Shown here piece by piece: positions 27,137 to 60,256 of a stretch of 64,000 nucleotides of DNA. This stretch comes from Planctomycetaceae bacterium (GTDB lineage Bacteria; Planctomycetota; Phycisphaerae; Phycisphaerales; UBA1924): NCBI GenBank assembly GCA_044507535.1, contig JBIQJK010000008.1, positions 1,299 to 65,298 on the forward strand, in the 5' to 3' direction. Both the position numbers and the translations under genes were made by a program. Each line of letters opens with the position of its first letter. Position 1 is the first letter of the stretch. The notes beneath the pieces were generated by a model. The model was given only the letters and a program-made list of their open reading frames with translations. It was not told where the DNA came from and searched no databases.

Positions 27137-27140
27137 GGGC

Positions 27141-32813: not shown

Positions 32814-32896
32814 GCTGCTCTCTTTCAATCGGTCGCAACCGGCAAAGTCTCGTCAGCCCCTCCCCGCGCTCAGCGCTCGGCGCTCGGCGCCGAGTC

Positions 32897-33592
32897 CTAG
32901 TAGTGGCACGCCCCGCAGTTGTCCGGCAGCAGGTGCAGCGGCTCGCTCGCCAGCGCCCGCAGCAGCTCCGGCCCCGCCTGGGCCTGCGCCTGCGTGTCCT
33001 TCAGCCGCCGCTCCACCTCGAGCAGGTCCGTCACCATGCTCGGCGGCACCAGGTGCGGCGTCGGGTCCCGGTGGCAGTCCAGGCACCACGCCATGCTCAG
33101 CGGCTCCACCTGGTGCACCACCGCCTGGTTCACGATCGCCCCGTGGCACGAGTAGCAGCTCACCCCCGCGCTGACGTGCACGTCGTGCGGGAAGTTCCGC
33201 ACGTAGTCCGGCAGCTTGTGCACCCGCCGCCACTCGATCGACGCGTCCGCCTCGTACGCGTCGCGCACGAACTGCGACTTCGCGTGCTGGTCCGGCGGCA
33301 GCTGCAGCCGCCCCTCCGCGTGGCACCCGTAGCACGTCGCCACGTTCGGGATGTTCGCCTCCGGCGACTCCTCCACGTGCGTGTGGCAGTACCGGCAGTC
33401 CATCCCCAGCTTCCCCGCGTGCAGCTGGTGGCTGAACCCGCCCCCGGGCTGCGTCGGCATGTACCCGACTTCCCAGAACTTGGGCGTGAAGTAGTACCAC
33501 ACGAAGCCGACGGCGCTGGACCCGCCCCCCAGAACCACCAGCAGGAGGATCGCGGGAAGCCGATTGGTCCACCTGGGGAAAATCGTTGACAC
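32897..33592 (-). CDS. actA: alternative complex III pentaheme cytochrome c ActA
   Basis: Five CxxCH motifs (CRYCH, CYGCH, CYSCH, CLDCH, CGACH) after an N-terminal TM anchor. GTG start. Confidence 0.9.
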   Translation of the reverse strand: MSTIFPRWTNRLPAILLLVVLGGGSSAVGFVWYYFTPKFWEVGYMPTQPGGGFSHQLHAGKLGMDCRYCHTHVEESPEANIPNVATCYGCHAEGRLQLPPDQHAKSQFVRDAYEADASIEWRRVHKLPDYVRNFPHDVHVSAGVSCYSCHGAIVNQAVVHQVEPLSMAWCLDCHRDPTPHLVPPSMVTDLLEVERRLKDTQAQAQAGPELLRALASEPLHLLPDNCGACHY

Positions 33593-33949
33593 GTGGAGGC
33601 CCCTTCAACCGCCGGACCGCCGGGAGGGCACCCGACAGCCCGCGAACCTGCTCGTTCCAACCCCTCCCCGCGCCCGCCCACCGGTCCGATTCACCATGTG
33701 GGGCGAGTACCCTAGCAGCCCGTCGCTCCGTTCGCTACTTCCACCGGAATCGTTGCGGCTGGACAGAATAGTTGCTGTCAAACAGCAATCTCTCCACTCT
33801 GAGCGTATCCTGTCAAGGTAGGGACCGTACCAGAACCCAAGTGAGACTCAGTCTCAGACGAGTTCCACCCTGTAACCTCCCCACCCGGCCCTCGCCTCAA
33901 TCCAGGCCGGCATAAGTTCGGTTATCCACCCGGAACAAGGGGTACTCTC

Positions 33950-35383
33950 GTGACCCACCCAGAATCCGGCCCAGCCGTCCCGTCCACCACCCAACCCATC
34001 CCCCGGCCCCACCGCCGCCTCGGCCCGATGCTCTCCGCGGGCCTCGCCGCGGCCGTCGGCCTCTGGTCCGCCTGGTTCATCACCCACCTCCCCTGGCTCG
34101 GCATCGCCGAGCAGATCAGCCTCCCCATCCTCCTCGCCGTCTGGCTCGCCATGGCCATCCTCGGCCCGCGCATCGCCGGCGTGGACCCCCGCCGCACCAG
34201 CCCCCTCTTCGGCGCGGGCGCTGGCGTCGTCGCCGCGGTCCTCGGCCTGCTCATCCTCGGCTCCAAGCTCGACGAGCACGCCCCCGGCTTCGAGGCACTC
34301 CGCCCCTCCGCCGCGCTGATGGCCCTCGGCTTCATCGGCCTGGGCGCCGTCATCGGCGCCGTCGGCTCCGGGCTGGCGAGCTTCCTGCCCCGCCCCCTCA
34401 CCGCCCCCCGCGACGAGGGCCACTGGCTCTCGCGCCTCGCCATCGTCGCCGTTGTCGCCGTCGCCCCCCTCCTCTTCGTCGGCGGGCTGGTCACCAGCAC
34501 CGACTCGGGCATGGCCGTCCCCGACTGGCCCAACACCTTCGGCTCCAACATGTTCCTCTACCCCCTCGGCCCCCGCGCCCAGCCCAACGTCTACCTCGAG
34601 CACTCCCACCGCCTCTTCGGCACCCTCGTCGGCCTCGCCACCCTCGCCCTCATGGTCGGCGTCTACCGCAACGACGACCGCCGCTGGGTCCGCCGCTGGG
34701 CGATCGTGGTCTTCGCGCTCGTCTGCGTCCAGGGCTTCCTCGGCGGCATCCGCGTCACCGAGAACAGCCGCCTGCTGGCCATGTTCCACGGCGTTCTCGC
34801 CCAGATCCTCTTCGCCGGCCTCGTCGCGCTCGCCGTCTTCCTCGCCCCCGCCTACCGCGCCCTGATCGCCCGCCTCGCGGCCTCCGACACCCCCGAGATC
34901 GCCCCCGACCTCCAGCCCACCCTCCGCCGCCTCCGCTTCCTCGCCACCGGCGCCGCCCACGTCACCATGATGCAGCTCGTCTTCGGCGCGATGTACCGAC
35001 ACTTCCGCTCCGACCACGCCCTGTGGACCCACGCCGTCTTCTCGGTCTTCGTGGTGATCCTCGCCGTCGCCGCGGGCTTCGCGACCATGAACATCCCGCA
35101 GGCCATGGGCCGCGTCGGCCGGATCATCCGCGCCGCCGGCATGGGCGTGCTCGTGGCCGTCGGCATGCAGTTCGTCCTCGGCTGGATCGCCTTCGGCGCG
35201 GGCGGGCGCGAGCACGAGGCGGCGACCATCCCCCAGGCCCTCATCCGCACCGTCCACCAGGCCAACGGCGCCCTCCTCCTCGCCCTGGCCACCATGCTCT
35301 ACATGTGGGCCCGCCCCCTCGCCCCCCGCACCCTCGTCGCGCCAGACCACCCCGCCGCCGCCGCTGCGCCCGCGCAGACCTGA
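33950..35383 (+). CDS. ctaA: heme A synthase (CtaA/COX15 family) with an extended N-terminal membrane region
   Basis: Conserved His-containing helices EHSHRLFGTLVGL, MFHGVLAQILF, MMQLVFGAMYRHF and VHQANGALLLA. The exact start is uncertain. Confidence 0.8.
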   Translation: MTHPESGPAVPSTTQPIPRPHRRLGPMLSAGLAAAVGLWSAWFITHLPWLGIAEQISLPILLAVWLAMAILGPRIAGVDPRRTSPLFGAGAGVVAAVLGLLILGSKLDEHAPGFEALRPSAALMALGFIGLGAVIGAVGSGLASFLPRPLTAPRDEGHWLSRLAIVAVVAVAPLLFVGGLVTSTDSGMAVPDWPNTFGSNMFLYPLGPRAQPNVYLEHSHRLFGTLVGLATLALMVGVYRNDDRRWVRRWAIVVFALVCVQGFLGGIRVTENSRLLAMFHGVLAQILFAGLVALAVFLAPAYRALIARLAASDTPEIAPDLQPTLRRLRFLATGAAHVTMMQLVFGAMYRHFRSDHALWTHAVFSVFVVILAVAAGFATMNIPQAMGRVGRIIRAAGMGVLVAVGMQFVLGWIAFGAGGREHEAATIPQALIRTVHQANGALLLALATMLYMWARPLAPRTLVAPDHPAAAAAPAQT

Positions 35384-35612
35384 CCGGCGACGTCAACCCG
35401 GGATCATCCCTGGCCCCGCGTTCGGCCCCGCGCGCCGATAGAGCAGGAAACCCGCCCAGCCGGGGCGGAAGATGCCCCACGGGCCCGGTTCTCAGGCATA
35501 ATCACCCTGTAGGCCCGGCGCCGCGAGCCCAGCCGCGGCGACCATGCCCGCAATGGCCCCGCCCCGACGTCCGTTCTCTGACGGGGGGCGCGGCCGATGG
35601 GGCAGCGGCCCC

Positions 35613-35684
35613 GGGGGTATGGCCCTGGGGGTGTGGCTCTGGGGGGTGTGGCTCTGGGGGGTGTGGCTCTGGGGGGTGTGGCTC
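35613..35684. repeat. about 5 tandem copies of a 14-15 bp G-run repeat (GGGGG(G)TGTGGCTCT) abutting the DUF1800 ribosome-binding site
   Basis: Read directly. Copies lie at 35613-26 (variant gggggtatggccct), 35627-40, 35641-55, 35656-70 and 35671-84 (truncated), immediately followed by AAGGAG (35685-90) and ATG 35699. Confidence 0.9.
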
Positions 35685-35698
35685 AAGGAGCCCCGGCG

Positions 35699-37249
35699 AT
35701 GACCTCCACGCTCCAGCCTTCAACCCCTCCCCAGAGGCGCCCCGCCATCACCGCCTCCATGAAGCCCATCGCCCCCCACCGCTTCGGCTTCGACCAGGCC
35801 CGCCACCTCCTCTGGCGCGCCGGCTTCGGCGGCACCGCCGAGCAGGTCCAGACCCTCGCCTCCTGGGGCCCCGAGAAGTCGGTGGACCATCTCCTCGACT
35901 ACGCCGACATCCCCTTCGAGCCCGTCGCCCTCGACGAGTTCGACTCCACCCTCATGCGCTCCCCCACCGCCCAGGAGCGCGAGGCCGCCCGGCGCGCCCG
36001 CCGCGCCGGCGACGAGGAGACCCTCGCCCGCCTCCAGGCCCGCCGCCAGGAGGCCGAGCGCAACGACCGCCGCCAGATGGCCCGCATCCAGCGCTGGTGG
36101 CTCCGCCGCATGATCGAGACCCCGCGCCCCCTCGAAGAGAAGATGACCCTCTTCTGGCACGGCCACTTCGCCACCAGCTACCGCACCATCGAGCACAGCT
36201 ACAACATGCTCCAGCAGAACGCCCTCTTCCGCCGCCACGCCGCGGGGAACTTCGGCGAGCTCCTCTTCGCGATCATCCGCGACCCCGCCATGATCGCCTA
36301 CCTCGACAACAACGACTCCCGCAAGGGCCGCCCCAACGAGAACCTCGCCCGCGAGCTCATGGAGCTGTTCAGCCTCGGCGTCGGCAACTACTCCGAGAAC
36401 GACATCAAGGAGGGCGCCCGCGCCCTCACCGGCTACACCTTCCGCGACACCGAGTTCCTCTTCGAGGAAAGCAACCACGACGACGGCCCCAAGACCATCC
36501 TCGGCCGCCGCGGGCGCCTCGACGGCGACGCCTTCGTCAAGGCCATCCTCGAGCACCGCGCCTGCGCTCCCTTCATCGCCGGCAAGCTCTACCGCTGCTT
36601 CGTCGCCGACGTCCCCACCGGCCGCCCCGACCTCGACGCCGCCGCGGCCGCCGCCGTCCGCGAGCTCTCCAAGTCCCTGCTCGCCTCCCGCTACAGCCTG
36701 AAGCCCGTCCTCCGCAAGCTCTTCCTCAGCGAGCACTTCTACGACCCCGCCGTCATCGGCGAGCAAATCAAGTCCCCCGTCGAGCTCGTCGTCGGCGCCG
36801 TCCGCTCGCTGAACACCCCCGTCCGCGACCTGGGCGTCCTCACCGACGCCCTCGCCCTCATGGGCCAGAACCTCTTCTTCCCCCCCTCCGTCGCCGGCTG
36901 GGCCGGCGGCCGATCGTGGATCAACACCTCCACCCTCTTCGTCCGCCAGAACATCCTCTGCTTCCTCCTGACCGGCAAGAAGCCCGTCGGCTACGACGCC
37001 CTCGCCAACGCCGAGAAGTACGACCCATCCCCCCTCCTCGCCGGCCTCACCCGCGCCGACCCCGCGGCCGCGAGCGACCCCGCCCGCGTCATCGACTACA
37101 TCCTCCGCCTCACCCTCCCCTCCCCCTCCCAGGCCCGGCGCGACGAGCTCCTCGCCTTCGTGGACTCCCTCGGCGGCCGCATCACCCCCGACGTCATCAC
37201 CGCCGCCCTGCTGCTCATCACCGCCATGCCCGAGTACCAGCTCTGCTAG
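35699..37249 (+). CDS. DUF1800 domain-containing protein
   Basis: HLLWRAGFGGT..., ...LFWHGHFATS..., ...NENLARELMELFSLGVGNYSENDIKE.AR.LTG are typical DUF1800 blocks. AAGGAG lies 8 nt upstream of the ATG. Confidence 0.85.
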   Translation: MTSTLQPSTPPQRRPAITASMKPIAPHRFGFDQARHLLWRAGFGGTAEQVQTLASWGPEKSVDHLLDYADIPFEPVALDEFDSTLMRSPTAQEREAARRARRAGDEETLARLQARRQEAERNDRRQMARIQRWWLRRMIETPRPLEEKMTLFWHGHFATSYRTIEHSYNMLQQNALFRRHAAGNFGELLFAIIRDPAMIAYLDNNDSRKGRPNENLARELMELFSLGVGNYSENDIKEGARALTGYTFRDTEFLFEESNHDDGPKTILGRRGRLDGDAFVKAILEHRACAPFIAGKLYRCFVADVPTGRPDLDAAAAAAVRELSKSLLASRYSLKPVLRKLFLSEHFYDPAVIGEQIKSPVELVVGAVRSLNTPVRDLGVLTDALALMGQNLFFPPSVAGWAGGRSWINTSTLFVRQNILCFLLTGKKPVGYDALANAEKYDPSPLLAGLTRADPAAASDPARVIDYILRLTLPSPSQARRDELLAFVDSLGGRITPDVITAALLLITAMPEYQLC

Positions 37250-37289
37250 CCCCCTTCCCTCAACCCCCCCACTCCCCCGGGAACCCGCC

Positions 37290-38624
37290 ATGTCCACCCA
37301 CGATCCCATGTCCACCGCCTTCACCCGGCGCGAGTTCCTCTCCCGCGGCCTGACCCTCGCCTCCGCCGCCGCGACCCTCCCGCTGTTCATCCAGCGCTCC
37401 GCGCTCGCCATTCCGCACGCCGCGCCCGGCATGTCGTCCATCCCCGGCGTCAACGAGGGAAACATCCTCGTCGTCGTCCAGCTCGGCGGCGGCAACGACG
37501 GGCTCAACTCCCTTATCCCCTTCGGCGACCCCGCCTACTACAAGGCCCGCCCCACCATCGGCGTCCCCGAAGGGCGCATCCTCAAGTTCGGGTCCAGCGG
37601 TTTCGGCCTCCACCCCGCCCTCCGCGGCCTCATGCAGCTCCACGACCGCGGCCTGCTCGGCATCGTCCAGGGCGCCGGCTACCCCAACCCCAACCGCTCC
37701 CACTTCAAGTCCATGGACATCTGGCACACCGCCGACACCAGCGCCACCGGCCTCGGCTGGATCGGACGCTACCTCGACGCCCAGTGCTGCGGCTACGGCA
37801 AGGGCGAGGGGGGCAGGCCCGAGGGCGCCCGCCCCGCCGACCCCGATCCCCAGGCCGCCATCGCCATCGGCCGCGACGCCCCGCTCGCCATGCAGGGCGC
37901 CGTCGCCAAGCCCATCGCCTTCGAGAACACCGACCTCTTCCGCTGGATGGGCGAGGGCGTCCACCGGTCCCTTGTCGAGCCCTACGAGCAGATCACCCGC
38001 CGCGGCGTCGCCGACCCCGCCGACGAGGGGACCAACGCCGGCTTCCTCATGCGCACCGCGCTCGACGCCCAGGTCTCCAGCGACCGCATCCGCAAGGCCG
38101 TCGCCCAGCGCCCCCTCGTGCAGTACCCCGGCGGCGAGCTCGCCCGCCAGCTCCAGATGGTCGCCAGCATGATCCGCGCCGGCCTCTCCACCCGCGTCTA
38201 CTACGTCACCATGGGCGGCTTCGACACCCACGCCGGCCAGGGGGGCGAAAGCGGCCGCCACGCCCAGCTCCTCACCCAGTTCGCCAGCTCCCTCCGCGCC
38301 TTCTACGACGACCTGAAAGAGCAGGGCAACGACGCCCGCGTCCTGACCATGTCCTTCAGCGAGTTCGGCCGCCGCGTCGGCCAGAACGCCAGCGGCGGCA
38401 CCGACCACGGCACCGCCGCCCCCATGTTCCTCGCCGGCCCCATGGTCCGCCCCGGCCTCCTCGGCAAGCACCCCTCCCTCACCGACCTCGACGACGGCGA
38501 CCTCAAGTTCACCACCGACTTCCGCGCCGTCTACGCCGGCATCCTCCAGCACTGGCTCAGCGCCGACCCCAGGCAGATCCTCCCCGCCTCCGTGCGGCCG
38601 ATGGAGATCCTCAGGAAGGCGTAG
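37290..38624 (+). CDS. DUF1501 domain-containing protein (Tat-exported, sulfatase-like fold)
   Basis: Twin-arginine signal FTRREFLSRGLTLASAAA, with GGNDGLN...SHF.S...GGFDTH...EFGR...GTDHG blocks typical of DUF1501. Confidence 0.85.
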   Translation: MSTHDPMSTAFTRREFLSRGLTLASAAATLPLFIQRSALAIPHAAPGMSSIPGVNEGNILVVVQLGGGNDGLNSLIPFGDPAYYKARPTIGVPEGRILKFGSSGFGLHPALRGLMQLHDRGLLGIVQGAGYPNPNRSHFKSMDIWHTADTSATGLGWIGRYLDAQCCGYGKGEGGRPEGARPADPDPQAAIAIGRDAPLAMQGAVAKPIAFENTDLFRWMGEGVHRSLVEPYEQITRRGVADPADEGTNAGFLMRTALDAQVSSDRIRKAVAQRPLVQYPGGELARQLQMVASMIRAGLSTRVYYVTMGGFDTHAGQGGESGRHAQLLTQFASSLRAFYDDLKEQGNDARVLTMSFSEFGRRVGQNASGGTDHGTAAPMFLAGPMVRPGLLGKHPSLTDLDDGDLKFTTDFRAVYAGILQHWLSADPRQILPASVRPMEILRKA

Positions 38625-40387: not shown

Positions 40388-41029
40388 TCACCCGGCCTTC
40401 GCCGCCGCGAACCGCCGAGCGACCTCCGGCCAGTTCACCACGTTCCACCACGCGGCGATGTAGTCCGGCCGCCGGTTCTGGTAGCTCAGGTAATACGCGT
40501 GCTCCCAGACGTCCAGGCCCAGGATCGGCGTCCCCCCGCACCCAGCGACCCCCTCCCCCATCAGCGGGGTGTCCTGGTTGGCCGTCGAGCAGACCGCCAG
40601 CTTCCCGTCCTTCCCGACGCACAGCCAGGCCCACCCCGACCCGAACCGCCCGGCCGCAGCCGCGGCGAACTTCTCCTTGAAGGCGTCGAACGACCCGAAC
40701 GCCTGGTTGATCGCCTCGGCCAGCTCCCCCGTCGGGGCACCGCCGCCCCCGCTGCCGGCCGGGGCCATGATCGTCCAGAACAGGGAGTGGTTGACGTGCC
40801 CGCCGACGTTGTTCCGGGCGGCGGTTCGGCGATCCTCCGGCACCTCGTTCAGCCGGGCGACCACCTGTTCGGGGGGGAGATCAGCCAGAGGGGTCCCCTC
40901 CAGGGCCTTGTTGGCGTTGGTCACGTAGGCGTTGTGGTGCTTGGAGTGATGGATCTCCATCGTCCGGGCATCAATGTGGGGCTCGAGGGCGTTGGTTGGG
41001 TACGGGAGAGGGGGCAGGGTGAAGGGCAT
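40388..41029 (-). CDS. Fe/Mn superoxide dismutase
   Basis: [32 protein letters not shown]...[27 protein letters not shown] lies 7 nt upstream of ATG 41029. Confidence 0.95.
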
Positions 41030-41619
41030 GGCTCGGCTCCTTGTTGGTGGTGGACCGGGAGAGGCTCCCGGCCGCGGATGGGACACTCAGCAGTAGCCTG
41101 GGAAAATCACGGGCATGGGGAGGACTTCATGACCCTCCCGAGGGATCTGTTCGTATGGAAAGCAGGGGCCGCGGAGCGTGGCGGCTTTTCGGCCTTGCCA
41201 GCAGGGACGACCCGATGTATCTTGGCGTCTCGTTGAGGACATTTTCTGCACTCGCGGAGCGGGTGCAGAGCAACGTGCGAGCCTACCCCGGACCTCGCAG
41301 CGCGTCAACGCGGCAGATTACCGGGCCTGACATGGATGGGTTGGAAGGGGGGGCGGGTGTGTCGATGTGTCGGACGGCTTTGGGCCCCCGGGGCCTGGTG
41401 TCTGAGCGGGGTATTCTCGCTTGGAATCGTTCTAAAAAACGGAACAAACGTGGGGCTGTTCCGTATATGAAATGATGCGCCACGGCCAGCCGGCCGGGCC
41501 GCCCGGGAGGGTGTGGAAGAGATGACCAAAGGGGCCTGATTGTGGATCGACCGGGTGTGAATCCAGAGGTCCACGCCACCGGCCCCAAGCAGCGCGAGCT
41601 CCACGATCGAGACGAAAGG

Positions 41620-42711
41620 ATGGCAGAACCCATGATCATTACACCGAGCCCTCTTGAACAGCACCGGCGGCGGAGCCGGGTGCAGTTCTCGCCCGGTGCC
41701 GAGTCGGCGGGAACCACCCGCCGCACCAAGCGGACCCTCAGCCGCGAGGATGAGAAGCTCCTCGCCCAGCTCCTCTCAGCCGAGCAGGACTTCATCGACA
41801 GCCCCGTCTTCCGCGAGGAGGGGGCCGAGCAGGCGATCTACGACGAAGCCCCGGAGATCCAGAAGCCGGACACCAGCTGGTACCACCCGGTGATGGACGA
41901 CCTCTCCCCGGGCAAGAGCCGCACCGTCAAGAGCGCCCAGCAGGTCATCCTCACCGGCGCCGAGGAGCGGGTCCTCTTCCACCAGTTCAACTACGCCCGC
42001 TACCGCGTCTGGAAGCTCCAGCAGGAGATCTGGTCCAGCCCCGACCGCAAGCCCACCCCCGAGCAGGCCGAGGAGATGCTCTCCTGGTACCGCCGGGCCG
42101 AGGTCATCCGCGAGCAGATCGCCGAGACCAACCTCGCCCTGGTCCTGGCCATGGCCAAGCGCACCCGCATGAGCGAGGTGGACTTCGCCGACCTGGTCAG
42201 CGAGGGGAACATGGCCCTGCTCCGCGCGGTGGACAAGTTCGACGCCGGCCGCGGCTACAAGTTCTCCACCTACGCCTGCCGGGCCATCCTCAAGGCCTTC
42301 AGCCGCCAGGGGATGAAGCTCAGCAAGTACCGCCAGCGCTTCCCGACCGACTTCGACCCCAAGCTCGAGAAGTCCAACTACCTCGAGACCAAGCGGGCCG
42401 GGTTCGAGAAGGAGGCCGCCGACGAGGTCAAGCGGATCGTCCTGGACAACCGCGCCGACCTCACCGACGTCGAGCGGACGGTCATCGAGCACCGCTTCGG
42501 CCTGGAGTCCGGCGAGGCGGACAAGCCCATGACCCTCGAGCAGGTCGGCCAGATCATCGGCGTCACCAAGGAGCGCGTCCGCCAGATCCAGAACAAGGCC
42601 ATGGAGAAGATCCGCCTGGCCCTGGAGTCCAGCTTCCTCGGCGTCAAGCGCGACGAGGATGGTCGCGAGGACGGCCCCGCCGGCGGCGGCATGTCCTCCC
42701 TGAGCTTCTGA
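41620..42711 (+). CDS. sigma-70 family RNA polymerase sigma factor (group 1/2-like)
   Basis: Region 2 DLVSEGNMALLRAVDKFDAGRGYKFSTYACRAILKAF. Region 4.2 MTLEQVGQIIGVTKERVRQIQNKAMEKIR. The start is uncertain (41542 or 41620). Confidence 0.85.
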   Translation: MAEPMIITPSPLEQHRRRSRVQFSPGAESAGTTRRTKRTLSREDEKLLAQLLSAEQDFIDSPVFREEGAEQAIYDEAPEIQKPDTSWYHPVMDDLSPGKSRTVKSAQQVILTGAEERVLFHQFNYARYRVWKLQQEIWSSPDRKPTPEQAEEMLSWYRRAEVIREQIAETNLALVLAMAKRTRMSEVDFADLVSEGNMALLRAVDKFDAGRGYKFSTYACRAILKAFSRQGMKLSKYRQRFPTDFDPKLEKSNYLETKRAGFEKEAADEVKRIVLDNRADLTDVERTVIEHRFGLESGEADKPMTLEQVGQIIGVTKERVRQIQNKAMEKIRLALESSFLGVKRDEDGREDGPAGGGMSSLSF

Positions 42712-42756
42712 CCGCCCCGCCGCCCGTCGGAGGCGGCCCGGATGCAAGCCCAGAGC

Positions 42757-42790
42757 GGGCCCGGAACCCTCCGGGCCCTTTCTTCTTTTT
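42757..42790 (+). terminator. intrinsic terminator of the sigma factor gene
   Basis: GGGCCCGGA accc TCCGGGCCC followed by TTTCTTCTTTTT. Confidence 0.75.
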
Positions 42791-43066
42791 GGCCCCCCTT
42801 CTCCGACCGCTACCGCCGCCGGCAGCTCGCCGTCGTCTGCCCCCGACGGCTCCGCCGCCTCCAGCGCCGGCCCCGTGGAAGGCTCGGCCCGACCGCGGCG
42901 GCATCCGGGCCTCTCGCCCGCGGGCCGCCGCGGAAAGCCCCCGGTTTGCGCTGCGAACGAAGGGCGGCCGCCGCAACCTCGCCGCCCGCGCCTGCGAACC
43001 TCTGGGCGGGCCCGGGGTTCGCCCGCCGGGCCGCAGGTCTTGCTGGAGGCAGGTGCTCACCGGCCC

Positions 43067-43099
43067 CCGCCGCGGCGTCCCGCGGTGGCCTGTTTTTTT
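43067..43099 (+). terminator. second, orphan intrinsic terminator inside the sigma-pilT spacer
   Basis: CCGCCGCGG cgtc CCGCGGTGG (9-bp stem, one G-U pair), then CCTG and a run of 7 T. Confidence 0.55.
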
Positions 43100-43197
43100 A
43101 TCGGCCGCGGCCATCCGGAAGGGCGGCGGGGAGAGGGAGAGGGGTTCGGGAGGGCCGCGCGGGGCGGCGCGTTTCCACGCTCCGATTTTCGTGTACC

Positions 43198-44490
43198 ATG
43201 GAAAGGGGACAGCACGTGTCCATGAACAATCAGACCGCCGCGCCCGGCGCGGCCGACGGCGAAGTGGTCGCGACGACGGGCGTCGGCGGCGCTCCGGCCG
43301 CGACCGCTCCGGGAACCAAGAGGGAACCGGGTGCCATGAGCCTCACCGCCGAGCCCGCCAGCCAACCGATCGCCTCCCACGTCACCCTGGACCCCGACAG
43401 GAAGCACGACCCGCACGCGACGCGGTTCGGCAAGTTCCTCGCCGCGGCCATCAAGCTCAGCGCCTCGGACCTCATCATGAAGTCCGGGCAGCCCCCCAAG
43501 CTCCGCCTCCGCGGCGCGCTCAAGCCCCTGGACACCCCCCCGGTCACCGCCGAGGAGTTCCTCCAGATCGCGAAGCACATCCTGACCGACGAGCAGTTCA
43601 AGGACCTGCGCCACTTCGGCTCGGTGGACTTCGCCTACGACTACGACGAGAACAACCGCTTCCGCGTCAACCTCTTCCAGGCCCGCGGCAAGCTCTCCAT
43701 CGCCGCCCGTCTGATCACCAGCAACATCAAGAAGTTCGAGGAGCTCTACCTCCCCCCCGTCATGGCCGAGATCGCCATGCAGCCCCAGGGGATCGTGCTC
43801 CTCTGCGGCGTGACGGGCTCGGGCAAGTCCACCACCATCGCCTCGATGCTCGACTACGTCAACGAGCGCAAGCCCGTGCACATCGTCACCATCGAGGACC
43901 CGATCGAGTACATCTTCACGGACAAGAAGGCCACCATCAACCAGCGCGAGATCGGCATCGACTGCCTCGACTTCAAGATCGCGCTCCGCGCCCTGGTCCG
44001 CGAGAACCCCGACATCGTGCTCGTCGGGGAGATGCGCGACAAGGAGACCTTCGAGGCCGCCCTCCACGCCGCCGAGACCGGCCACCTGGTCTACGGCACC
44101 ATCCACGCCTCCAGCACCACCCAGACCTTCAGCCGCATCTACGGCCTCTTCGAGCAGGAGGAGGTCGAGCAGGTCCGCCGCATCCTCGCCTACCAGATGC
44201 GTGCCTTCGTCTACCAGAAGCTCCTCCCCACCCTCCACGAGAACATCCAGCGCATCCCCGCCTGCGAGATCCTCATCAACAACAGCGTCGTCCGCAAGCA
44301 CATCCTCGAGGGACGCGAGGGCGAGCTCCGCGAGTACCTCAACAGCATCGAGGCGATCCAGTCCGGCATGAAGGACTTCAACCTCTCCCTCGTCGAGCTC
44401 GTCGAGGGCGAGTACATCCACATGCGCGTCGCCCTCGAGGCCACCCCCAACGCCGACGAGCTGATGATGCGCCTCAAGAAGCTCGGCTGA
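43198..44490 (+). CDS. pilT: type IV pilus retraction ATPase PilT family, with a ~65-residue Ala/Gly/Pro-rich N-terminal extension
   Basis: Canonical Walker A LLCGVTGSGKSTT, Asp box/Walker B DIVLVGEMRD, His box TGHLVYGTIHA, and the N-domain block ASDLIMKSGQPPKLRLRG. An alternative start is at ATG 43222. Confidence 0.9.
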   Translation: MERGQHVSMNNQTAAPGAADGEVVATTGVGGAPAATAPGTKREPGAMSLTAEPASQPIASHVTLDPDRKHDPHATRFGKFLAAAIKLSASDLIMKSGQPPKLRLRGALKPLDTPPVTAEEFLQIAKHILTDEQFKDLRHFGSVDFAYDYDENNRFRVNLFQARGKLSIAARLITSNIKKFEELYLPPVMAEIAMQPQGIVLLCGVTGSGKSTTIASMLDYVNERKPVHIVTIEDPIEYIFTDKKATINQREIGIDCLDFKIALRALVRENPDIVLVGEMRDKETFEAALHAAETGHLVYGTIHASSTTQTFSRIYGLFEQEEVEQVRRILAYQMRAFVYQKLLPTLHENIQRIPACEILINNSVVRKHILEGREGELREYLNSIEAIQSGMKDFNLSLVELVEGEYIHMRVALEATPNADELMMRLKKLG

Positions 44491-44546
44491 ACAGCCCCGG
44501 CCCGGGCCGCGCCCGGCGCACGCCCCACGCCGCCGACGACCCCATC

Positions 44547-44590
44547 GACCGGCCGCCGCCCCCACCCGGCGCGGCCGGTCTTTTCTTTTC
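44547..44590 (+). terminator. intrinsic terminator of pilT
   Basis: GACCGGCCGC ...14 nt... GCGGCCGGTC followed by TTTTCTTTTC. Confidence 0.7.
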
Positions 44591-44677
44591 GCGCCCCCCG
44601 CGGGGCACGCGCAGGACCCCGCCCCCTGCCACCCGAACCACGGGCGAACCGGCACGGCCGCGGCCGCCCTCCCCGGT

Positions 44678-44706
44678 TTGTAAACCATCACCATTTCGGC
44701 TAGTGT
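44678..44706 (+). promoter_or_regulatory. candidate sigma-70-type promoter for the PilB/GspE-like gene
   Basis: TTGTAA (44678-83), a 17-nt spacer, then TAGTGT (44701-06). This is an AT-rich pair of hexamers in an otherwise GC-rich spacer, ~140 nt upstream of ATG 44844. Confidence 0.3.
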
Positions 44707-44843
44707 GTACGCCCCGCTGCCACCGCCCCCTCCCGTCGTGCGTATAGACCGGCCAGGGGCGTTGCAGCGCCCCGCGTTGCTTGTTTTTGACTCGGTCCCT
44801 GCCCCCGAATCCGCCGGGCCGCGAACCGTCCGGAGCACCTCCG

Positions 44844-46628
44844 ATGTCGATCCCCACCTCCGCTCTGCTGGCCCAAGCGAGCGGCATGATGCTCGTTTCG
44901 GCCTGGAAGCCCTTCCTCATCCTCCTGTTCTGGGTCCCGTGGGCCTGGGTCATCACCAAGGTCTACGACAAGCACGCCGCCCGCTTCTTCCTCCCCCGCC
45001 GCCGGTGGAACATCATCCACCTCGTCGCCGGGACCATCGCGCTGATGGCCGCGCTGCTCATGCCCATCCCCGGCGAGGCGGCCTTCTGGGTCGGCCTGCT
45101 CGCCATGCTCGCCATCCTCGGGGCCGATCTCTTCGCCTACGCCTACGCCGCGAACAAGGATGAGCGAGTCCCCGACCGCTTCAAGATCCGCCTGAACCTC
45201 GACTCCCTCCGCCAGGGCAAGGCCGAGAAGGAGGCCGCCAAGCTCCAGGCCAAGGTCGCCCTCACGATCAAGTCCCCCGACGAGAAGGGCAAGCCCGCCG
45301 TCACCATCCCCCCGCCCCAGCCCGAGACCCCCGAGTACGAGGTCCGGGTCGCCGCCGAGGCGGTGTACAACAAGGCCATGCTCGCCCGCGCCTCCCAGGT
45401 GGACATCGGCCCCGCCGGCGCCCCGGGCAAGGAGGGCGTCTACGGCGTCTCCTTCCTGGTGGACGGCGTCCGCCAGGCCGGCGAGACCATGCCCCCCGCC
45501 GCCGCGGTCAAGATCATGGACTTCTGGAAGGCCGCGGCCAAGCTCGACGTCTCCGACCGCCGCCGCAGGCTACAGGGCATGTGCTCCGTCGAGCACGACG
45601 GCGCCAAGCACCTGGTCCGCGTCACCAGCGTCGGCGTCCAGGGCGGCGGCATGCGGCTGACCATGCTCTTCGACCCCGAGCAGGCGGTCCTCCGCCGGCC
45701 CGAGGAGCTCGGCCTGCTCGACATGCAGATGGCCGCCCTCAAGGACATCACCTCCGAGACCAAGGGCATCGTCCTGCTCGCCGCCCCCCCGGACGGCGGG
45801 CGCACCACCCTCACCTACTCCGTCGCCCAGCTCCACGACGCCTACACCAGCAACGTCCAGACCGTCGAGGTCGACCCGCAGGCCTCCCTCGAGGGCATCC
45901 GCGTCAACAAGTTCGAGCCCGAGAAGGAGGGGGCGGAGTTCAGCACCCTCGTCCGCTCCGTCCTGCGGCGCGACCCGCAGGTCGTCTTCGTCGGCGAGCT
46001 CCCCGACGCCAACACCGCCAAGGAGATCGTCAAGGGCGACCTGGACCGCACACGCGTCTACGTCTCCCTCCGCGCCGACAGCGCCCTGGGCGCCATCGAC
46101 CTGTGGCTCAAGACCATCGGCGACCCCGCCGCGGGCGCCAAGCGCCTCGAGGGAGTCCTCGCCGGCCGGCTGCTCCGCAAGCTCTGCACCAACTGCCGCG
46201 TCGGCTACCCGCCGTCGCCGGACATGCTCAAGAAGCTCGGCCTGCCCGCGGACAAGATCCCGCAGCTGTTCAAGAAGGGCGGCCAGGTGCTCATCAAGAA
46301 CAAGCCCGAGGTCTGCCCCATGTGCAACGGCGTGGGGTACATCGGCCAGGAGGGCATCTTCGAGATCTACAAGCTCGACGACGAGGACCGCGCCATGCTC
46401 GCCTCGGGCAACCTCGCCGGCGTCAAGGCCGCCCTCCGCAAGAAGCAGCAGCCCACGATCCAGCAGTCGGCGATCCGCAAGGCCGTGGACGGCACCACCA
46501 GCGTCGAGGAGGTGATGCGCGTCACCGCCCCCGCCGCGGCCGCCCCGCGCCCCGCCGCCGCCGGGGGGGGCGGGGGCGGCGCCCAGGCCCAGCGCCCCGC
46601 CCCCGAGCCCCAGCCCAGCAAGACCTGA
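44844..46628 (+). CDS. membrane-anchored PilB/GspE (T2SS/T4P assembly ATPase) family protein with degenerate nucleotide-binding motifs
   Basis: N-terminal hydrophobic helices (MMLVSAWKPFLILLFWVPWAWVI; IIHLVAGTIALMAALLMPI; AFWVGLLAMLAILGADLFAYAYA). N2-like block VYGVSFLVDGV...DRRRRLQGMCSV...VRVTSV. In place of Walker A: VLLAAPPDGGRTTLTYS. In place of Walker B: RRDPQVVFVGELPD. In place of the His box: RVYVSLRA. The tetracysteine CTNC...CPMCNGVGY is retained. Confidence 0.8.
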   Translation: MSIPTSALLAQASGMMLVSAWKPFLILLFWVPWAWVITKVYDKHAARFFLPRRRWNIIHLVAGTIALMAALLMPIPGEAAFWVGLLAMLAILGADLFAYAYAANKDERVPDRFKIRLNLDSLRQGKAEKEAAKLQAKVALTIKSPDEKGKPAVTIPPPQPETPEYEVRVAAEAVYNKAMLARASQVDIGPAGAPGKEGVYGVSFLVDGVRQAGETMPPAAAVKIMDFWKAAAKLDVSDRRRRLQGMCSVEHDGAKHLVRVTSVGVQGGGMRLTMLFDPEQAVLRRPEELGLLDMQMAALKDITSETKGIVLLAAPPDGGRTTLTYSVAQLHDAYTSNVQTVEVDPQASLEGIRVNKFEPEKEGAEFSTLVRSVLRRDPQVVFVGELPDANTAKEIVKGDLDRTRVYVSLRADSALGAIDLWLKTIGDPAAGAKRLEGVLAGRLLRKLCTNCRVGYPPSPDMLKKLGLPADKIPQLFKKGGQVLIKNKPEVCPMCNGVGYIGQEGIFEIYKLDDEDRAMLASGNLAGVKAALRKKQQPTIQQSAIRKAVDGTTSVEEVMRVTAPAAAAPRPAAAGGGGGGAQAQRPAPEPQPSKT

Positions 46629-46785
46629 CCGTACCGACCCGGCCGCCGCAGGGGCCGCCCCCGGGCGCCCGCGGCCGCTGAACCACGCACGCACCCCCGC
46701 GCGGCCCCGGCGCCGCGCCGCAGACCTGACAAGCCCGAGCCGGCCGGCCCCCCGCGGCCCGGCCCCCCTCGGCGGAGAGCGGACC

Positions 46786-48564
46786 ATGATCCTCAGCCTG
46801 GTGGTGATCCTCCTCATCGGCATCATCGCGTACGTGTGGGCGTCGCGAGGCTTCTTCTCCTCCCTCGTGCACATGCTCTGCGTGCTCGTGGCCGGCGCCG
46901 TCGCCTTCGGCCTCTGGGAGCCCATCGCCTACGCCATCCTCGGCGCCGACCCCAAGGGGTGGATCGTGGACATGGCCTGGGGCGTCTCGCTCGCCGTCCC
47001 CTTCGCCGTCACCCTCGCCGGCCTCCGGCTGGGAATCGACAGCCTCCTGCCCGCCAACACCGACCTCGACACCGCCAGCAACCTCATCGGCGGCGGCATC
47101 TGCGGGGCCGTCTCCGGCACCATCTCCGTCGGCATCCTCGTCCTGGCGATCAGCTTCCTCCGCCTCCCCTCCTCGGTGGCGGGCCACGAGGCGATCGGCT
47201 TCGACCCCGGCGGCTCCGTCAAGCGAGAGAGCAGCCTGCTCCTCCCCGCCGACCGCATCACCGCCGGCCTCTACTCCGCCCTCTCCCGCTCCACCCTCCG
47301 CACCCCCACGCCGATGGACCTCTGGCGCCCCCGCCTCGCCGAGGAGGGGCACATGCTCCGCACCAACTTCAACAACGGCGGCGCCAAGCACACCCTCACC
47401 CCCGCCTCCTTCGAGCTGCTGGGCCGCTACACCGTCGGCATGGACAACGCCATCCCCCTGCGAGAGCTGACCACCGACTCCTTCTCCGAGGCCGTCCAGA
47501 ACGTCAAGACCCTCACCGGCGAGCCCGCCTCGCAGAACTCCTACATCGAGGGCCTCGTCGTCCAGTTCAAGGCCGGTGCCCGCGAGAAGGAGGGCCGCGT
47601 CGTCATCGGCAACGCCCAGATCCGCCTGGTCTGCACCCCCGCCAACGACCCCTACGGCGAGTCCATCGCCATCCACCCCTTCGCCATGGTCTCCCAGGCC
47701 GGCGGCGACAAGCTCGACCTCGGCCGCTGGCGCTTCGAGCGTCCCAAGATCTTCATCGCCTCCGTCGGCGGCGCGGCCGACTCCACCATGGCCTTCGAGT
47801 TCCTCGTCCCCCGCGACTACCGGCCCCTGGCCCTGTACGTCAAGGGCGTCCGCGTCAACCTCCTGAGCACCCAGCCCTTCCAGAAGTACACCGACGTCGC
47901 GAGCCGCGACGCCGCCGTCCGCGCCGGCTCCATCCTCTCCGCCCTCGTCGGCGGCTCCGGCCCCATCGACAACTCCCGCGTCACCACCATCGACCCCACC
48001 TCGACCCCGGAGGGCGGCTTCGAGAGCGAGGTCATGACGATCGGCGCCCTCGCCGGCCGCCTGATCCTCAACAAGGACAACCTTCCCGGCATCGAGATCG
48101 ACGAGAACAACCGCATCCTCGTCGCCGACGCCAAGTACCGCTCCAGCGACCTGACCGAGAACCGCAGCCTCAACCGCTCCCTCCAGGTCCGCGAGTTCGC
48201 CACCACCGACGACACCCAGATCGTCCAGCTCAGCGTCGGCTCCCAGTCCCGCGTCGGCCTGCTCACCTCCGCGGCCCTCAACGCCGACCTCAGCAAGCCG
48301 ATGTTCCTGGTGGACCAGAACGGCCAGCGCTACCAGGCCATCGGCTACGTCTACCAGGACGCCGGCGAGGTCCACATCCGCATGACCCCCGGCCGCCCTC
48401 TCCGCGCCGTCACCGAGCTGCCTAACAGCGGCCCGACCACCAGCCGCCCCGATCAGAAGTTCTACCTCGTCTTCCGCGTCAGCAAGGGCGTGGACATCCG
48501 CTTCTTCACCGTCGGCGATATCGCCATCGGGGAGTTCAGCCCGCCGCTGAAGATCGGCGGCTGA
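46786..48564 (+). CDS. CvpA-family membrane domain fused to a ~450-residue domain of unknown function
   Basis: N-terminus MILSLVVILLIGIIAYVWASRGFFSSLVHMLCVLVAGAVAFGLWEP... with 4 predicted TM helices resembles CvpA (colicin V production protein family). I do not recognise the remainder. GGAGAG lies upstream of the ATG. Confidence 0.65.
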   Translation: MILSLVVILLIGIIAYVWASRGFFSSLVHMLCVLVAGAVAFGLWEPIAYAILGADPKGWIVDMAWGVSLAVPFAVTLAGLRLGIDSLLPANTDLDTASNLIGGGICGAVSGTISVGILVLAISFLRLPSSVAGHEAIGFDPGGSVKRESSLLLPADRITAGLYSALSRSTLRTPTPMDLWRPRLAEEGHMLRTNFNNGGAKHTLTPASFELLGRYTVGMDNAIPLRELTTDSFSEAVQNVKTLTGEPASQNSYIEGLVVQFKAGAREKEGRVVIGNAQIRLVCTPANDPYGESIAIHPFAMVSQAGGDKLDLGRWRFERPKIFIASVGGAADSTMAFEFLVPRDYRPLALYVKGVRVNLLSTQPFQKYTDVASRDAAVRAGSILSALVGGSGPIDNSRVTTIDPTSTPEGGFESEVMTIGALAGRLILNKDNLPGIEIDENNRILVADAKYRSSDLTENRSLNRSLQVREFATTDDTQIVQLSVGSQSRVGLLTSAALNADLSKPMFLVDQNGQRYQAIGYVYQDAGEVHIRMTPGRPLRAVTELPNSGPTTSRPDQKFYLVFRVSKGVDIRFFTVGDIAIGEFSPPLKIGG

Positions 48565-48615
48565 TCCCCGCCGCGGCCGGCGCAGCGCCGCCACGGCAAA
48601 GCCCATCAAAGGAAA

Positions 48616-48646
48616 GAAGGCCCGGGCGAGCCCGGGCCTTCTTTTC
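48616..48646. terminator. bidirectional intrinsic terminator between the convergent cvpA-like and rplI genes
   Basis: GAAGGCCCGGG cgag CCCGGGCCTTC, flanked by AAAG on the left and TTTTCGTT on the right. Confidence 0.7.
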
Positions 48647-48690
48647 GTTCCGAGTTCTCCCCCTCCCTCCCGACCTCCCCCGCCGCCGCA

Positions 48691-49257
48691 TCACTGCGGC
48701 TTGGAAGCCCCGGGGGCCTCGGCCGCGGCCGGGACCGCACCCTCGACCACCGCGCCCTCGGGCGCCTCCTCCTCTTCCTCCTCCTCGTCGAGGTCGAGCT
48801 TGCGGTCGGGCTTGACGACGAGCTTCAGCGTCGCCTCCAGGTCCGCCTCGAACTTGATCATCACCTCGAAGTCGCCGATCCGCTTGATCGTCTGCGCCAG
48901 GCGGACGTCCCGCGGCCGGACCTCGAAGCCCTTCTCCGCCAGCGCCGCGACGATGTCCTGCTGCGTCACCGACGCGTACAGGATGCCCATGTCGTTGCAC
49001 GAGCGGACCAGCTCCAGCTCCAGGCCGGACATCTTCTCGACCATCTGCTCGCGCTGCTTGCGGAGCTCGGCCAGCTGCCGCTCCACCTCGGCCCGCTTGG
49101 CCGCGAGCGCCTTGATCATCTCCTCCGTCGGCGTGGTCGCCAGGCCGCGGGGCAGCAGGTAGTTGCGGGCGTAGCCGCTGCGGACCTTCACCACGTCCCC
49201 GACGATCCCCAGGGCCTCGACGTTCTCGGTCAGCAGCAGTTCAACGTTCTTCGCCAT
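48691..49257 (-). CDS. rplI: 50S ribosomal protein L9
   Basis: MAKNVELLLTENVEALGIVGDVVKVRSGYARNYLLPRGLA. Acidic C-terminal tail. Confidence 0.95.
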   Translation of the reverse strand: MAKNVELLLTENVEALGIVGDVVKVRSGYARNYLLPRGLATTPTEEMIKALAAKRAEVERQLAELRKQREQMVEKMSGLELELVRSCNDMGILYASVTQQDIVAALAEKGFEVRPRDVRLAQTIKRIGDFEVMIKFEADLEATLKLVVKPDRKLDLDEEEEEEEAPEGAVVEGAVPAAAEAPGASKPQ

Positions 49258-55638: not shown

Positions 55639-56790
55639 TCAATCGGCGTCGCCGGCCGACCCGTCGCCTCCCTCCCCCTCCCCGCCCGGATCGCCCTGCC
55701 CCTGCCCCTCGATCGCCGCGGTGCTGATCACGTCGTAGCACGTCGCCATCAGCCCCACCAGCGGGAACTTCGCCCCCGTCGCCGGGTCGAACGGGCTCGG
55801 CCCCAGCCGGCGCAGCAGCGGGTGCGCCACCTCCGGCGCCTCGATCGGCATCTCCACCTGCTCCAGCGTAGGACCCACCGTCCAGAACCGGTCCAGCTCC
55901 GACTCCAGCGGCTCGGGCGCCATGTCGCTGATCCCCGGCAGGTGCGGCAGGTAGATCGGCGAGGCCCCGGTGGACGCCCCGGCCGCCCCCGCCACCGACC
56001 GCCGCTGCGACAGCCGCTCCAGCAGCTCCGCCCCCGGCATCCCGCGCAGCGTGAAGATCAGGAACGGGTCCGCGCCGAATCGGTCCGCCAGCAGCGTCAT
56101 CACGCAGCAGACGTGCTTGCACCACCCCCCCGCCCCCCCCACATCCCCCGTCTCCCCCACATCCCCCGTCTCCCCCGCGCCCGCCGCCGGCTCCGCAGGC
56201 GAGGTCGCCGGAGCCGCCGCCGCGCCCTCGCCCCCCGACGCCGGCGCATACGCCGCGGCCAGCGCCCGCGCCACCTGCCGGCAGTTGCACGACACCGCCA
56301 CCTCCGACGGCTCCGACGGGAACAGCTTCAGCCCCAGCGGCACGAAGATGTCCTCGATGTTCGCCGGCAGGTCGCCCGCCAGCAGCGTCGCGGCGTACCG
56401 CGCCTGCGCCGTCATCGCCGCGAGCACCTGCTCCCAGTGCTCCGGCTGGAACTTCGGCAGGCGGATGGTCGTCACGTAGGCGTCCGGCATTCGCCCCTGC
56501 ACCCGCGCCGTCACCGTCCCCGGCTGCACCTCCAGCGTCCGCGTCTGCCCCAGCTTGGCGTACTGGATCCCCTCGGCGAGCTGGTCGCCGGGGGCGCAGT
56601 TCTCCGCCAGCCGCATCCACCGCTGCGCCGCCCACGACGACAGGTCCGGCCCCTCGCGCGAGCGGAGCTTCACCCCCGCCGAGACCCGGCGCGGGCGCAG
56701 CGTCGGCTTCGGCGGGCGCGGCTCGAACCGCCGCGCCTCGCCCCCCGGCCAGGCCCCCTGCCTCGGGTCGCGCGGGTTCTGCATCGTCAC
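55639..56790 (-). CDS. SWIM zinc-finger domain protein (partner of the SNF2 helicase)
   Basis: CxC...CxH signature SCNC(168-170)...WCKH(224-226) in the context typical of SWIM proteins, followed by ADPFLIFTLRG. The GTG start overlaps the helicase stop (GTGA). Confidence 0.8.
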   Translation of the reverse strand: MTMQNPRDPRQGAWPGGEARRFEPRPPKPTLRPRRVSAGVKLRSREGPDLSSWAAQRWMRLAENCAPGDQLAEGIQYAKLGQTRTLEVQPGTVTARVQGRMPDAYVTTIRLPKFQPEHWEQVLAAMTAQARYAATLLAGDLPANIEDIFVPLGLKLFPSEPSEVAVSCNCRQVARALAAAYAPASGGEGAAAAPATSPAEPAAGAGETGDVGETGDVGGAGGWCKHVCCVMTLLADRFGADPFLIFTLRGMPGAELLERLSQRRSVAGAAGASTGASPIYLPHLPGISDMAPEPLESELDRFWTVGPTLEQVEMPIEAPEVAHPLLRRLGPSPFDPATGAKFPLVGLMATCYDVISTAAIEGQGQGDPGGEGEGGDGSAGDAD

Positions 56791-60197: not shown

Positions 60198-60256
60198 CGC
60201 GCCGTTGCTTCCCCTTCACCGCCCCTGCCAGGCCCGCACGATGGGGCCTTCGTCAA

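Follow-up and report, generated by a model that had tools for sequence, protein, structure and literature searches.

A membrane-anchored relative of the PilB/GspE ATPases with a remodelled active site and a CvpA-like partner in Planctomycetota

The 64-kb stretch of contig JBIQJK010000008.1 from a Planctomycetaceae bacterium that we analysed (the window; G+C ~71%) carries, at 44844–46628 on the + strand, a gene for a 594-residue membrane-anchored protein of the PilB/GspE ATPase superfamily, here called the pseudo-ATPase. PilB, GspE and PilT are regarded as soluble, catalytically active motors, docked on platforms of the PilC/GspF type. The pseudo-ATPase and its relatives keep the fold and the zinc site of these enzymes, have lost their catalytic residues in a conserved manner, begin with a transmembrane (TM) anchor, are encoded directly upstream of a CvpA-like membrane protein in every locus that could be scored and frequently lie close to a canonical PilT gene. 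Within the PilB/GspE superfamily, they form a clade of pseudoenzymes whose architecture and partner are both new. We propose, with a probability of about one half, that the pseudo-ATPase serves, tethered to the membrane and without catalysis of its own, as an adaptor or stator that, in complex with the CvpA-like protein, recruits an ATP-hydrolysing PilT hexamer.

Fold, active site and membrane anchor

The reading frame opens with ATG, and its assignment as an anchored PilB/GspE-like protein draws on the open reading frame itself, Pfam, comparison with the Protein Data Bank (PDB) and AlphaFold2 (AF2) modelling. Translation could also begin further upstream, at a TTG (44781), but the calls for identical contigs give the 594-residue form, and the same call is found, with identical neighbours, on independent metagenome contigs. 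A preliminary description of this DNA, made from its letters alone, had given the coordinates and residues of the gene and its motifs, and all of these proved correct. Pfam T2SSE (PF00437) matches residues 173–559 (E = 2e-37; 129 bits against a cutoff of 24.9), and Pfam returns nothing N-terminal of residue 173, including the soluble N1/GSPII domain. In the PDB, the best phmmer match is PilF (6ejf; E = 2e-38), and the nearest solved structures are Thermus PilF, Vibrio GspE/EpsE and Geobacter PilB, at E values from 1e-38 to 1e-28. The AF2 model, computed from 118 orthologues, has a mean confidence score (pLDDT) of 90. Foldseek aligns it with PilF (5oiu_B; E = 5e-32, template-modelling score 0.87) and matches PilF, PilB and EpsE at E values of ~1e-31 with scores of 0.84–0.87 normalised to the target. 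Profile searches, AF2 and Foldseek thus agree on the N2 plus RecA-like C-terminal fold of the T2SSE superfamily, as the preliminary description had proposed.

Within this superfamily, the protein resembles canonical PilB/GspE in its N2 and C-terminal ATPase folds, its tetracysteine motif and ~25% identity over ~400 residues. The NCBIfam models for GspE, PilB, TfpB and ComGA all match it, each far below its curated cutoff; for example, GspE (TIGR02533) scores 167.2 bits against 630.25 and PilB (TIGR02538) scores 141.1 bits against 675.65. The PilT/PilU model TIGR01420, which describes ~350-residue proteins without a zinc motif, reaches only 28.9 of the 319.1 bits needed.

Where canonical PilB and GspE keep the Walker A lysine and glycines, the arginine of the EIRD motif and two His-box histidines, the pseudo-ATPase has lost all of them. 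A residue-level HMMER alignment to PilF places AAPPDGGRTT (residues 313–322; 45780–45809, + strand) at the Walker A position normally occupied by GPTGSGK[ST]T, with llaAPPDGGRTtl under litGPTGSGKSft; the changes are Gly to Ala, Gly to Asp and Lys to Arg, with aspartate at the second Walker A glycine throughout the clade of the pseudo-ATPase. In the Walker B region, LRRDPQVVFVGELPD (45963–46007, + strand), vfvGELPD aligns under imvGEIRD. Read against the functional pattern DPDxxxVGEIRD, which pairs the catalytic glutamate with a conserved arginine, the protein has DPQVVFVGELPD, keeping the glutamate and replacing the arginine with proline. The His-box equivalent DRTRVYVSLRA (46044–46076, + strand), aligned as lDRTrvyvsLRa under lTGHlviatLHt, has lost both histidines (TGH to DRT, LH to LR). 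Neither GxxGxGK[ST] nor TGH...H is therefore present at its expected place, and the claim in the preliminary description that degenerate residues occupy the P-loop, Walker B and His-box positions is borne out by the PilF alignment together with structure prediction.

Other parts of the site are retained. They include Thr321 and Thr322 of Walker A, the Walker B glutamate, and Glu342 in the Asp-box region VQTVEVDPQA (45855–45884, + strand; TIEDPVEY in canonical enzymes), which is invariant in the 118 orthologues. The N2 Arg-rich motif DRRRRLQG (residues 238–245; 45555–45578, + strand) stands at the canonical ExRxPQDG position of the PilF alignment; DRRR[KR] is kept among orthologues, and Arg240 is invariant. 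The tetracysteine zinc motif CTNC...CPMC (46185–46325, + strand) is intact, and its four cysteines, Cys448, Cys451, Cys491 and Cys494, align with those of PilF and are invariant in all 118 sequences. A pattern scan for [AG]xxxxGK[ST] found no canonical P-loop elsewhere in the protein; among the orthologues, the pattern occurs in only two of 118, within the unconserved N-terminal tail. A conserved Gly195-Lys196 pair was considered as a hidden P-loop and rejected, being part of an N2 β-hairpin loop in which the next residue is Glu or Asp. From this combination of losses, we infer that the pseudo-ATPase no longer catalyses ATP hydrolysis.

In canonical GspE and PilB, a soluble N1/GSPII domain provides docking to GspL/PilM or binding of cyclic di-GMP. 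The pseudo-ATPase instead has three TM helices, at residues 21–47, 52–71 and 78–105 (44904–45158, + strand). These helices are hydrophobic and modelled by AF2 with pLDDT values above 93, and AF2, hydropathy and the positive-inside charge bias all agree with the roughly three N-terminal hydrophobic helices noted originally. Across the 118 orthologues, successive non-membrane segments contain on average 0.18, 3.69, 0.33 and 3.69 Lys plus Arg residues, a pattern that argues for an N-out/C-in topology with the ATPase-like domains in the cytoplasm. The predicted cytoplasmic loop between TM1 and TM2, VYDKHAARFFLPRxxWNxxHL (44961–45023, + strand), is conserved: the motif VYDKHAARFFLPR..WN..HL is invariant across the alignment, the invariant residues of the anchor are Lys22, Trp33, Asp42, His44, Trp55, Asn56 and His59, and a core, DKDAxxFxLxRxxWN, persists in deep clades. 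This conservation suggests that the loop may be an interaction surface. A search with the anchor alone (residues 1–140) returned only six short proteins of 122–234 residues and 47–57% identity (P0345 and P0415–P0419), which are probably split or frameshifted gene calls and could otherwise be stand-alone anchors.

Conservation and phylogenetic spread

A search of 5.8 billion proteins yielded at least 1,000 relatives of the pseudo-ATPase. The top 120 are all full length and 54–93% identical to it, and those with a named organism come from metagenome-assembled genomes assigned to Phycisphaerae, Phycisphaerales or Phycisphaeraceae. Every one of these 120 has the loop [AS]PxDxGRT[TS], an ELPD-type Walker B and the four cysteines, and the His-box replacement [DE]RTR.Y..[LM][RK], or [DE]RT...[RK] in its shortest form, is conserved across them. 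Both the degenerate P-loop and the TM anchor are present in 118 of 118 aligned orthologues (55–93% identity), in keeping with what had been suggested for this protein. The invariant residues of the site are Asp317, Gly319, Arg320, Glu342, Arg375, Arg376, Asp377, Pro378, Asp388 and Arg402, and the remodelled site ranks among the most conserved regions of the protein, which argues that it has been repurposed and is not decaying. Loss of catalytic residues under purifying selection across species is the pattern of a pseudoenzyme, in which inactivity itself is deduced from the residues.

When one genome was scanned for each GTDB species, 344 encoded relatives came to light. Of these, the best 80 are labelled nearly all as Phycisphaerae, Phycisphaerales or Phycisphaeraceae, with a few assigned to Planctomycetota only and one to Planctomycetaceae. 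Their 80 loci, which underlie the gene-order counts below, were found with a Phycisphaerales-level alignment and sample that clade only. Nearly all of the retrieved loci carry the label of a metagenome-assembled genome.

To describe the wider family, we used a profile search of 1.84 billion cluster representatives, in which nearly all of the best 150 matches are full length and include the anchor. Among the 106 anchored representatives with an aligned P-loop, the Walker A lysine is missing in 102 and kept in four. Its replacements are Leu (31), Arg (20), Val (17), Gln (14), Met (7) and Ile (7), as well as Gly, Ser and Thr. The Walker B glutamate position varies as well (Glu 22, Asp 20, Arg 19, Lys 11), as does the position of the EIRD arginine. 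A few anchored proteins, among them P0360, P0376, P0386 and P0389, keep GxxGxGK[ST], VGEIRD and TGH...H; UniRef A0A7C4LNK5, a protein attributed to Schlesneria paludicola, belongs to the P0360 cluster. Members of this intact group, such as A0A7C4LNK5, P0360, P0386 and P0376, share the three-helix anchor, the WN loop motif and the overall architecture with the pseudo-ATPase, and one of them is encoded beside a short CvpA protein. They differ in their intact catalytic motifs, in having no adjacent PilT in the two loci that could be scored and, in one case, in a forkhead-associated (FHA)/YscD-like extension. That case is P0376 (969 residues), which has intact motifs and an N-terminal FHA plus YscD-like cytoplasmic domain, on a contig too short to show its neighbourhood. 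Proteins of ~1,000 residues with two tandem canonical T2SSE domains (P0317, P0325, P0332, P0336 and others) were also seen.

In a rough neighbour-joining tree, the lysine-less members form one clade, the intact anchored members group with canonical ATPases and P0333, which keeps the lysine and has lost the other motifs, is basal to the lysine-less clade. The simplest reading of this crude tree is that the anchor was gained first and catalysis was then lost once. Judged by its sequences, the family is a large, ancient Planctomycetota clade in which the Walker A lysine has given way to Leu, Arg, Val, Gln, Met or Ile. The preliminary description had presented the protein as a membrane-embedded, probably non-catalytic paralogue with a Lys-to-Arg change. 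The membrane embedding and the absence of catalytic residues stand; the family extends beyond this organism and beyond Lys to Arg. Existing labels on these proteins read GspE/PulE, PilB or TadA ATPase, and no curated Pfam or NCBIfam family model captures anchored pseudo-ATPases.

A constant CvpA-like neighbour and a frequent PilT

On the + strand of the window, the pseudo-ATPase gene is preceded by genes for a sigma-70 family factor (41620–42711) and PilT (43222–44490) and followed by a gene for a 592-residue protein (46786–48564), its partner. Homologues of this partner lie directly downstream of the pseudo-ATPase gene on the same strand in all 74 scorable loci, with gaps of 7–292 bp. Partner homologues across the loci average 39% identity to the window copy, compared with 56% for the pseudo-ATPase and 79% for PilT. 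A CvpA-like N-terminal domain with four TM helices (residues 2–123) is followed by a β-rich domain of ~470 residues. The Colicin_V family (PF02674) matches the partner at E = 1.5e-4 and 22.2 bits, under its cutoff of 29.3. Many orthologues carry a precomputed PF02674 match, and a partner profile finds short PF02674 CvpA proteins at E = 1.4e-17 (the protein of locus L090) and 1e-12. The N-terminal four-TM domain is thus CvpA-like and probably homologous to CvpA, from which the partner differs in its additional domain. AF2 models the partner with a pLDDT of 94.8 and a predicted template-modelling score of 0.90, as four long N-terminal TM helices followed by a β-rich remainder. A Foldseek search of the PDB gave no usable fold match for the partner (best E = 3e-3, template-modelling scores below 0.12), and the modelled region of residues ~124–592 may be a new β-rich fold on a CvpA-type membrane domain. 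Escherichia coli CvpA is predicted to cross the membrane four times and to end in the periplasm with a variable C-terminus, for which partner binding has been proposed (bioRxiv 10.1101/2020.09.25.314492); by analogy with that prediction, the large domain of the partner is probably periplasmic.

PilT itself is canonical. The gene call on an identical contig gives a 422-residue protein that starts at 43222 (MNNQ...), with GVTGSGKST, VGEMRD and ETGH intact, and the protein passes TIGR01420 (pilT_fam) at 381.6 bits against 319.1. A longer reading frame from 42742 (582 residues) would add an N-terminus rich in Arg, Pro and Ala, as is usual when high-G+C DNA is translated out of context. In 53 of 66 scorable loci (~80%), the distance from PilT to the pseudo-ATPase gene is no more than 8 kb: PilT is upstream on the same strand at less than 600 bp in 34 and at 0.9–6.3 kb in 16, downstream in two and on the opposite strand in one. 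It is absent from 13 loci with at least 6 kb of flank, and a further 14 could not be scored. The preliminary description had pointed to the adjacent PilT; the obligate neighbour is the CvpA-like protein, which it did not mention. Its suggestion that the pseudo-ATPase is a scaffold or regulator for the adjacent PilT gains support from synteny, both in these loci and directly upstream in deep relatives, with the reservation that PilT is not an obligate neighbour.

Deep-branching loci show similar arrangements. Three lysine-less ones have the order PilT, pseudo-ATPase, CvpA-like partner, with the PilT gap being 151 bp in L089, 40 bp in L091 (where the partner follows after 32 bp) and 116 bp in L093. 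A fourth, L094, has the partner and no PilT, so that the partner is present in all four of these deep loci. In L095, the locus of the basal protein P0333, a PilT-like gene, the anchored protein and a 191-residue CvpA-like protein follow one another with gaps of 40 and 23 bp. The PilT gap over the four deep-branching members L089, L091, L093 and L095 ranges from 39 to 151 bp. PilT is absent from both scorable loci of intact anchored relatives (n = 2): in L090 a true CvpA of 244 residues follows the ATPase gene, and in L092 neither CvpA nor PilT is present. In two deep loci, murD, which encodes a peptidoglycan precursor ligase, follows the partner on the same strand (L089, 12105–13391; L094, 12186–13619); this placement is possibly a hint at an envelope role, or a coincidence.

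A consensus scan placed two terminator-like hairpins (44566–44578 and 44764–44780, + strand) between PilT and the pseudo-ATPase gene, and none between the latter and its partner, an arrangement that suggests one transcript for pseudo-ATPase and partner, with PilT perhaps transcribed on its own in this genome. Over 41000–49000, G+C-rich hairpins with T-tracts of this kind numbered 10 against 3.6 expected, and two of them follow the sigma factor gene (42757–42778 and 43067–43088). Many Phycisphaerales loci encode the sigma factor (Pfam Sigma70_r2/r4) ahead of PilT, at 74–88% identity to the window copy, which could be housekeeping synteny or a sign of a regulatory connection; the factor probably lies outside the module.

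This + strand series is flanked, on the opposite strand, by genes for superoxide dismutase and ribosomal protein L9. The remainder of the window consists of housekeeping genes, namely those for ribosomal proteins S6, L9 and L25, peptidyl-tRNA hydrolase (Pth), an SNF2 helicase, alternative complex III, cytochrome c oxidase and cytochrome c biogenesis. Its core-gene context (S6, L9, L25, Pth and superoxide dismutase) recurs in locus L002, and the module behaves like a core-genome feature, unlike an accessory pilus island. Neither the pseudo-ATPase nor the partner matches the anti-phage defence models of PADLOC.

Elsewhere in the window, a respiratory cluster at ~19748–33604 (– strand) encodes cytochrome c oxidase I, II and III, SCO1 and cytochromes c together with alternative complex III (ActD, NrfD-like, 4Fe-4S and multihaem c7-like components), and CtaA lies at 33845–35383 (+ strand). 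A DUF1800/DUF1501 gene pair, a pairing common in Planctomycetota, occupies 35582–38624 (+ strand). An SNF2 helicase of 1,142 residues with DUF3670 is encoded at 56787–60215 (– strand). A protein of more than 1,150 residues with P-proprotein-convertase, PPC and ASRT-like domains (60526–63999, – strand) runs past the end of the window, and a similar large S8/P_proprotein/PPC/ASRT protein is encoded near the module in L001.

Possible roles of the module

In the mechanism that we propose, a descendant of a PilB/GspE-type hexameric ATPase would be held by three TM helices, N-out and C-in, with its N2 and ATPase-like domains at the cytoplasmic face of the inner membrane. Its catalytic set has been exchanged for another, strictly conserved set of residues, with fold and zinc site kept. 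The pseudo-ATPase and the CvpA-like four-TM protein would work as a fixed pair, and this dead module would serve as a docking adaptor or stator that links the CvpA-type protein to a bona fide PilT hexamer, with PilT supplying the ATP hydrolysis. The data establish homology, fold and anchor, a loss of catalytic residues that is conserved, and synteny that is obligate for the partner and frequent for PilT; the lack of ATPase activity, the oligomeric state of the pseudo-ATPase, its contacts with partner and PilT, the direction of energy flow and the process served are inferred. The proposal draws on three observations: the partner is universally paired with the pseudo-ATPase; PilT often adjoins degenerate members, deep-branching ones included; and, with the caution due to small numbers, neither scorable intact relative with an anchor has PilT beside it. 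It also has a precedent: in Vibrio cholerae, a PilT whose Walker A and Walker B motifs have been inactivated still supports retraction when its paralogue PilU is active (PMC6821130). In that system, studied in V. cholerae and Acinetobacter baylyi, a hydrolysis-dead ring lets an active paralogue work, as we suggest here. The dead PilT of that study is an engineered mutant of a soluble protein, whereas the pseudo-ATPase is natural, ancient, PilB/GspE-derived and anchored, and its contact with PilT is presumptive.

Several observations weigh against this proposal. PilT is missing from 13 full-flank loci and from L094, making its linkage weaker than that of the partner, and what linkage there is could be conserved core-genome synteny, in which sigma factor and ribosomal protein genes travel along. 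Terminator-like hairpins separate PilT from the pseudo-ATPase gene in the window, and the contrast between intact members without PilT and dead members with PilT compares two loci with about five deep ones. P-loops with a Lys-to-Arg change can still bind nucleotide, which leaves a sensor role open to the pseudo-ATPase. Charge bias favoured neither side of the membrane for the C-terminal domain of the partner. Finally, type II secretion and type IV pilus clusters contain genes for GspF/PilC, GspL/PilM, pilins and a secretin, and nothing of the kind accompanies the pseudo-ATPase: no pilin, PilC/GspF, PilM/N/O, prepilin peptidase or secretin gene was found among the main reading frames of the window, and no platform (GspF/PilC), pilin, prepilin peptidase or secretin gene in the flanks of L001, L002 or L089–L095.

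Some of these points would equally suit a structural or regulatory subunit of a CvpA-type complex that has nothing to do with PilT, that is, a two-protein housekeeping module for envelope homeostasis or for solute or ion transport, with PilT nearby through conserved gene order only. Such a module would account for a partner in 74 of 74 loci beside a PilT missing from 13 full-flank loci and L094, for an intact anchored relative that pairs with CvpA without PilT (L090), for the terminator-like sites after PilT and for a location amid core housekeeping genes that recurs in L002. E. coli CvpA, an inner-membrane protein of largely unknown function, is likewise tied to envelope stress and not to pili (bioRxiv 10.1101/2020.09.25.314492). 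We nevertheless consider this account rather unlikely, given that PilT co-localises in 80% of the species representatives and sits 39–151 bp upstream in four deep lineages with otherwise different flanks; passive synteny is hard to reconcile with divergence so deep that pseudo-ATPase identity falls to ~28–35%.

A different possibility, which is compatible with an adaptor role, is that the remodelled site works as a non-hydrolysing switch, its occupancy by ATP, ADP or another phosphorylated ligand regulating the partner or PilT. Walker A Lys-to-Arg variants of P-loop NTPases often bind nucleotide without hydrolysing it. In the pseudo-ATPase clade, the remodelled site, with [AS]PxDxGRTT and arginines at the His-box positions, is invariant, not relaxed, and the protein still has Thr321/Thr322, Glu342 and the Arg-rich motif of N2. 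We regard a switch of this kind as distinctly improbable: an aspartate replaces the second Walker A glycine in this clade, and in the wider family the lysine position is mostly Leu, Val, Met, Ile or Gln and the glutamate is often Arg or Lys, substitutions that fit phosphate and Mg binding poorly and indicate that nucleotide binding is not general to the family. More improbable by far is a working ATPase with an unconventional site in which Arg stands in for the Walker A Lys. The retained GE(L)PD glutamate, Walker A threonine and Asp-box glutamate of this clade could be read in its favour, set against the joint loss of the Walker A lysine and two glycines, the EIRD arginine and both His-box histidines, the presence of Leu, Val, Met or Gln at the lysine position in sister groups of the same lysine-less clade, and NCBIfam GspE and PilB scores at about a quarter of their cutoffs. 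The degenerate motifs themselves, and nothing further, would speak for decay into a pseudogene or for an error of sequencing or assembly, and the chance of either is negligible. Strain-specific decay and artefact were rejected on the intact frame, a G+C content of 0.97 at third codon positions, identical or near-identical copies on independent contigs, the same substitutions in hundreds of species and a confident predicted fold.

The preliminary description knew of no report of a membrane-embedded, probably non-catalytic PilB/GspE paralogue. That view accords with our search of full-text literature, which did not extend to subscription journals and returned no anchored or naturally dead PilB/GspE paralogue and no link between CvpA and such an ATPase. 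To our knowledge, CvpA has not been connected with a secretion-type ATPase. The function of the CvpA family has been unclear for decades, and the pairing described here offers a testable clue to it, namely that CvpA may serve a hexameric ATPase-like protein as its partner in the membrane. For the PilB/GspE/PilT motor family, the pseudo-ATPase would represent a natural dead ring, of interest for the cooperation of paired motors such as PilT and PilU. For genome annotation, the labels GspE/PulE, PilB and TadA are wrong for these proteins and make secretion and pilus systems seem more numerous in genomes of Planctomycetota than they are.

More broadly, hundreds of species have retained among their core genes a member of this anchored clade without catalytic residues, beside a CvpA-like protein. 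Tentatively, and with more doubt than confidence, we raise the possibility that the module is part of an unrecognised, ancient inner-membrane machine of Planctomycetota, possibly one that spans the envelope, in which a PilT ring would sit on a dead, anchored ring that grips a CvpA platform. The CvpA-family protein would then replace the PilC/GspF platform, and its periplasmic domain would be new. On that view, hexameric secretion-type ATPases would have CvpA-family proteins as platforms in the membrane, and the series from an intact ATPase with CvpA, through a degenerate ATPase with PilT and CvpA, to a dead ATPase with PilT and an enlarged CvpA would show a path by which a motor becomes a stator.

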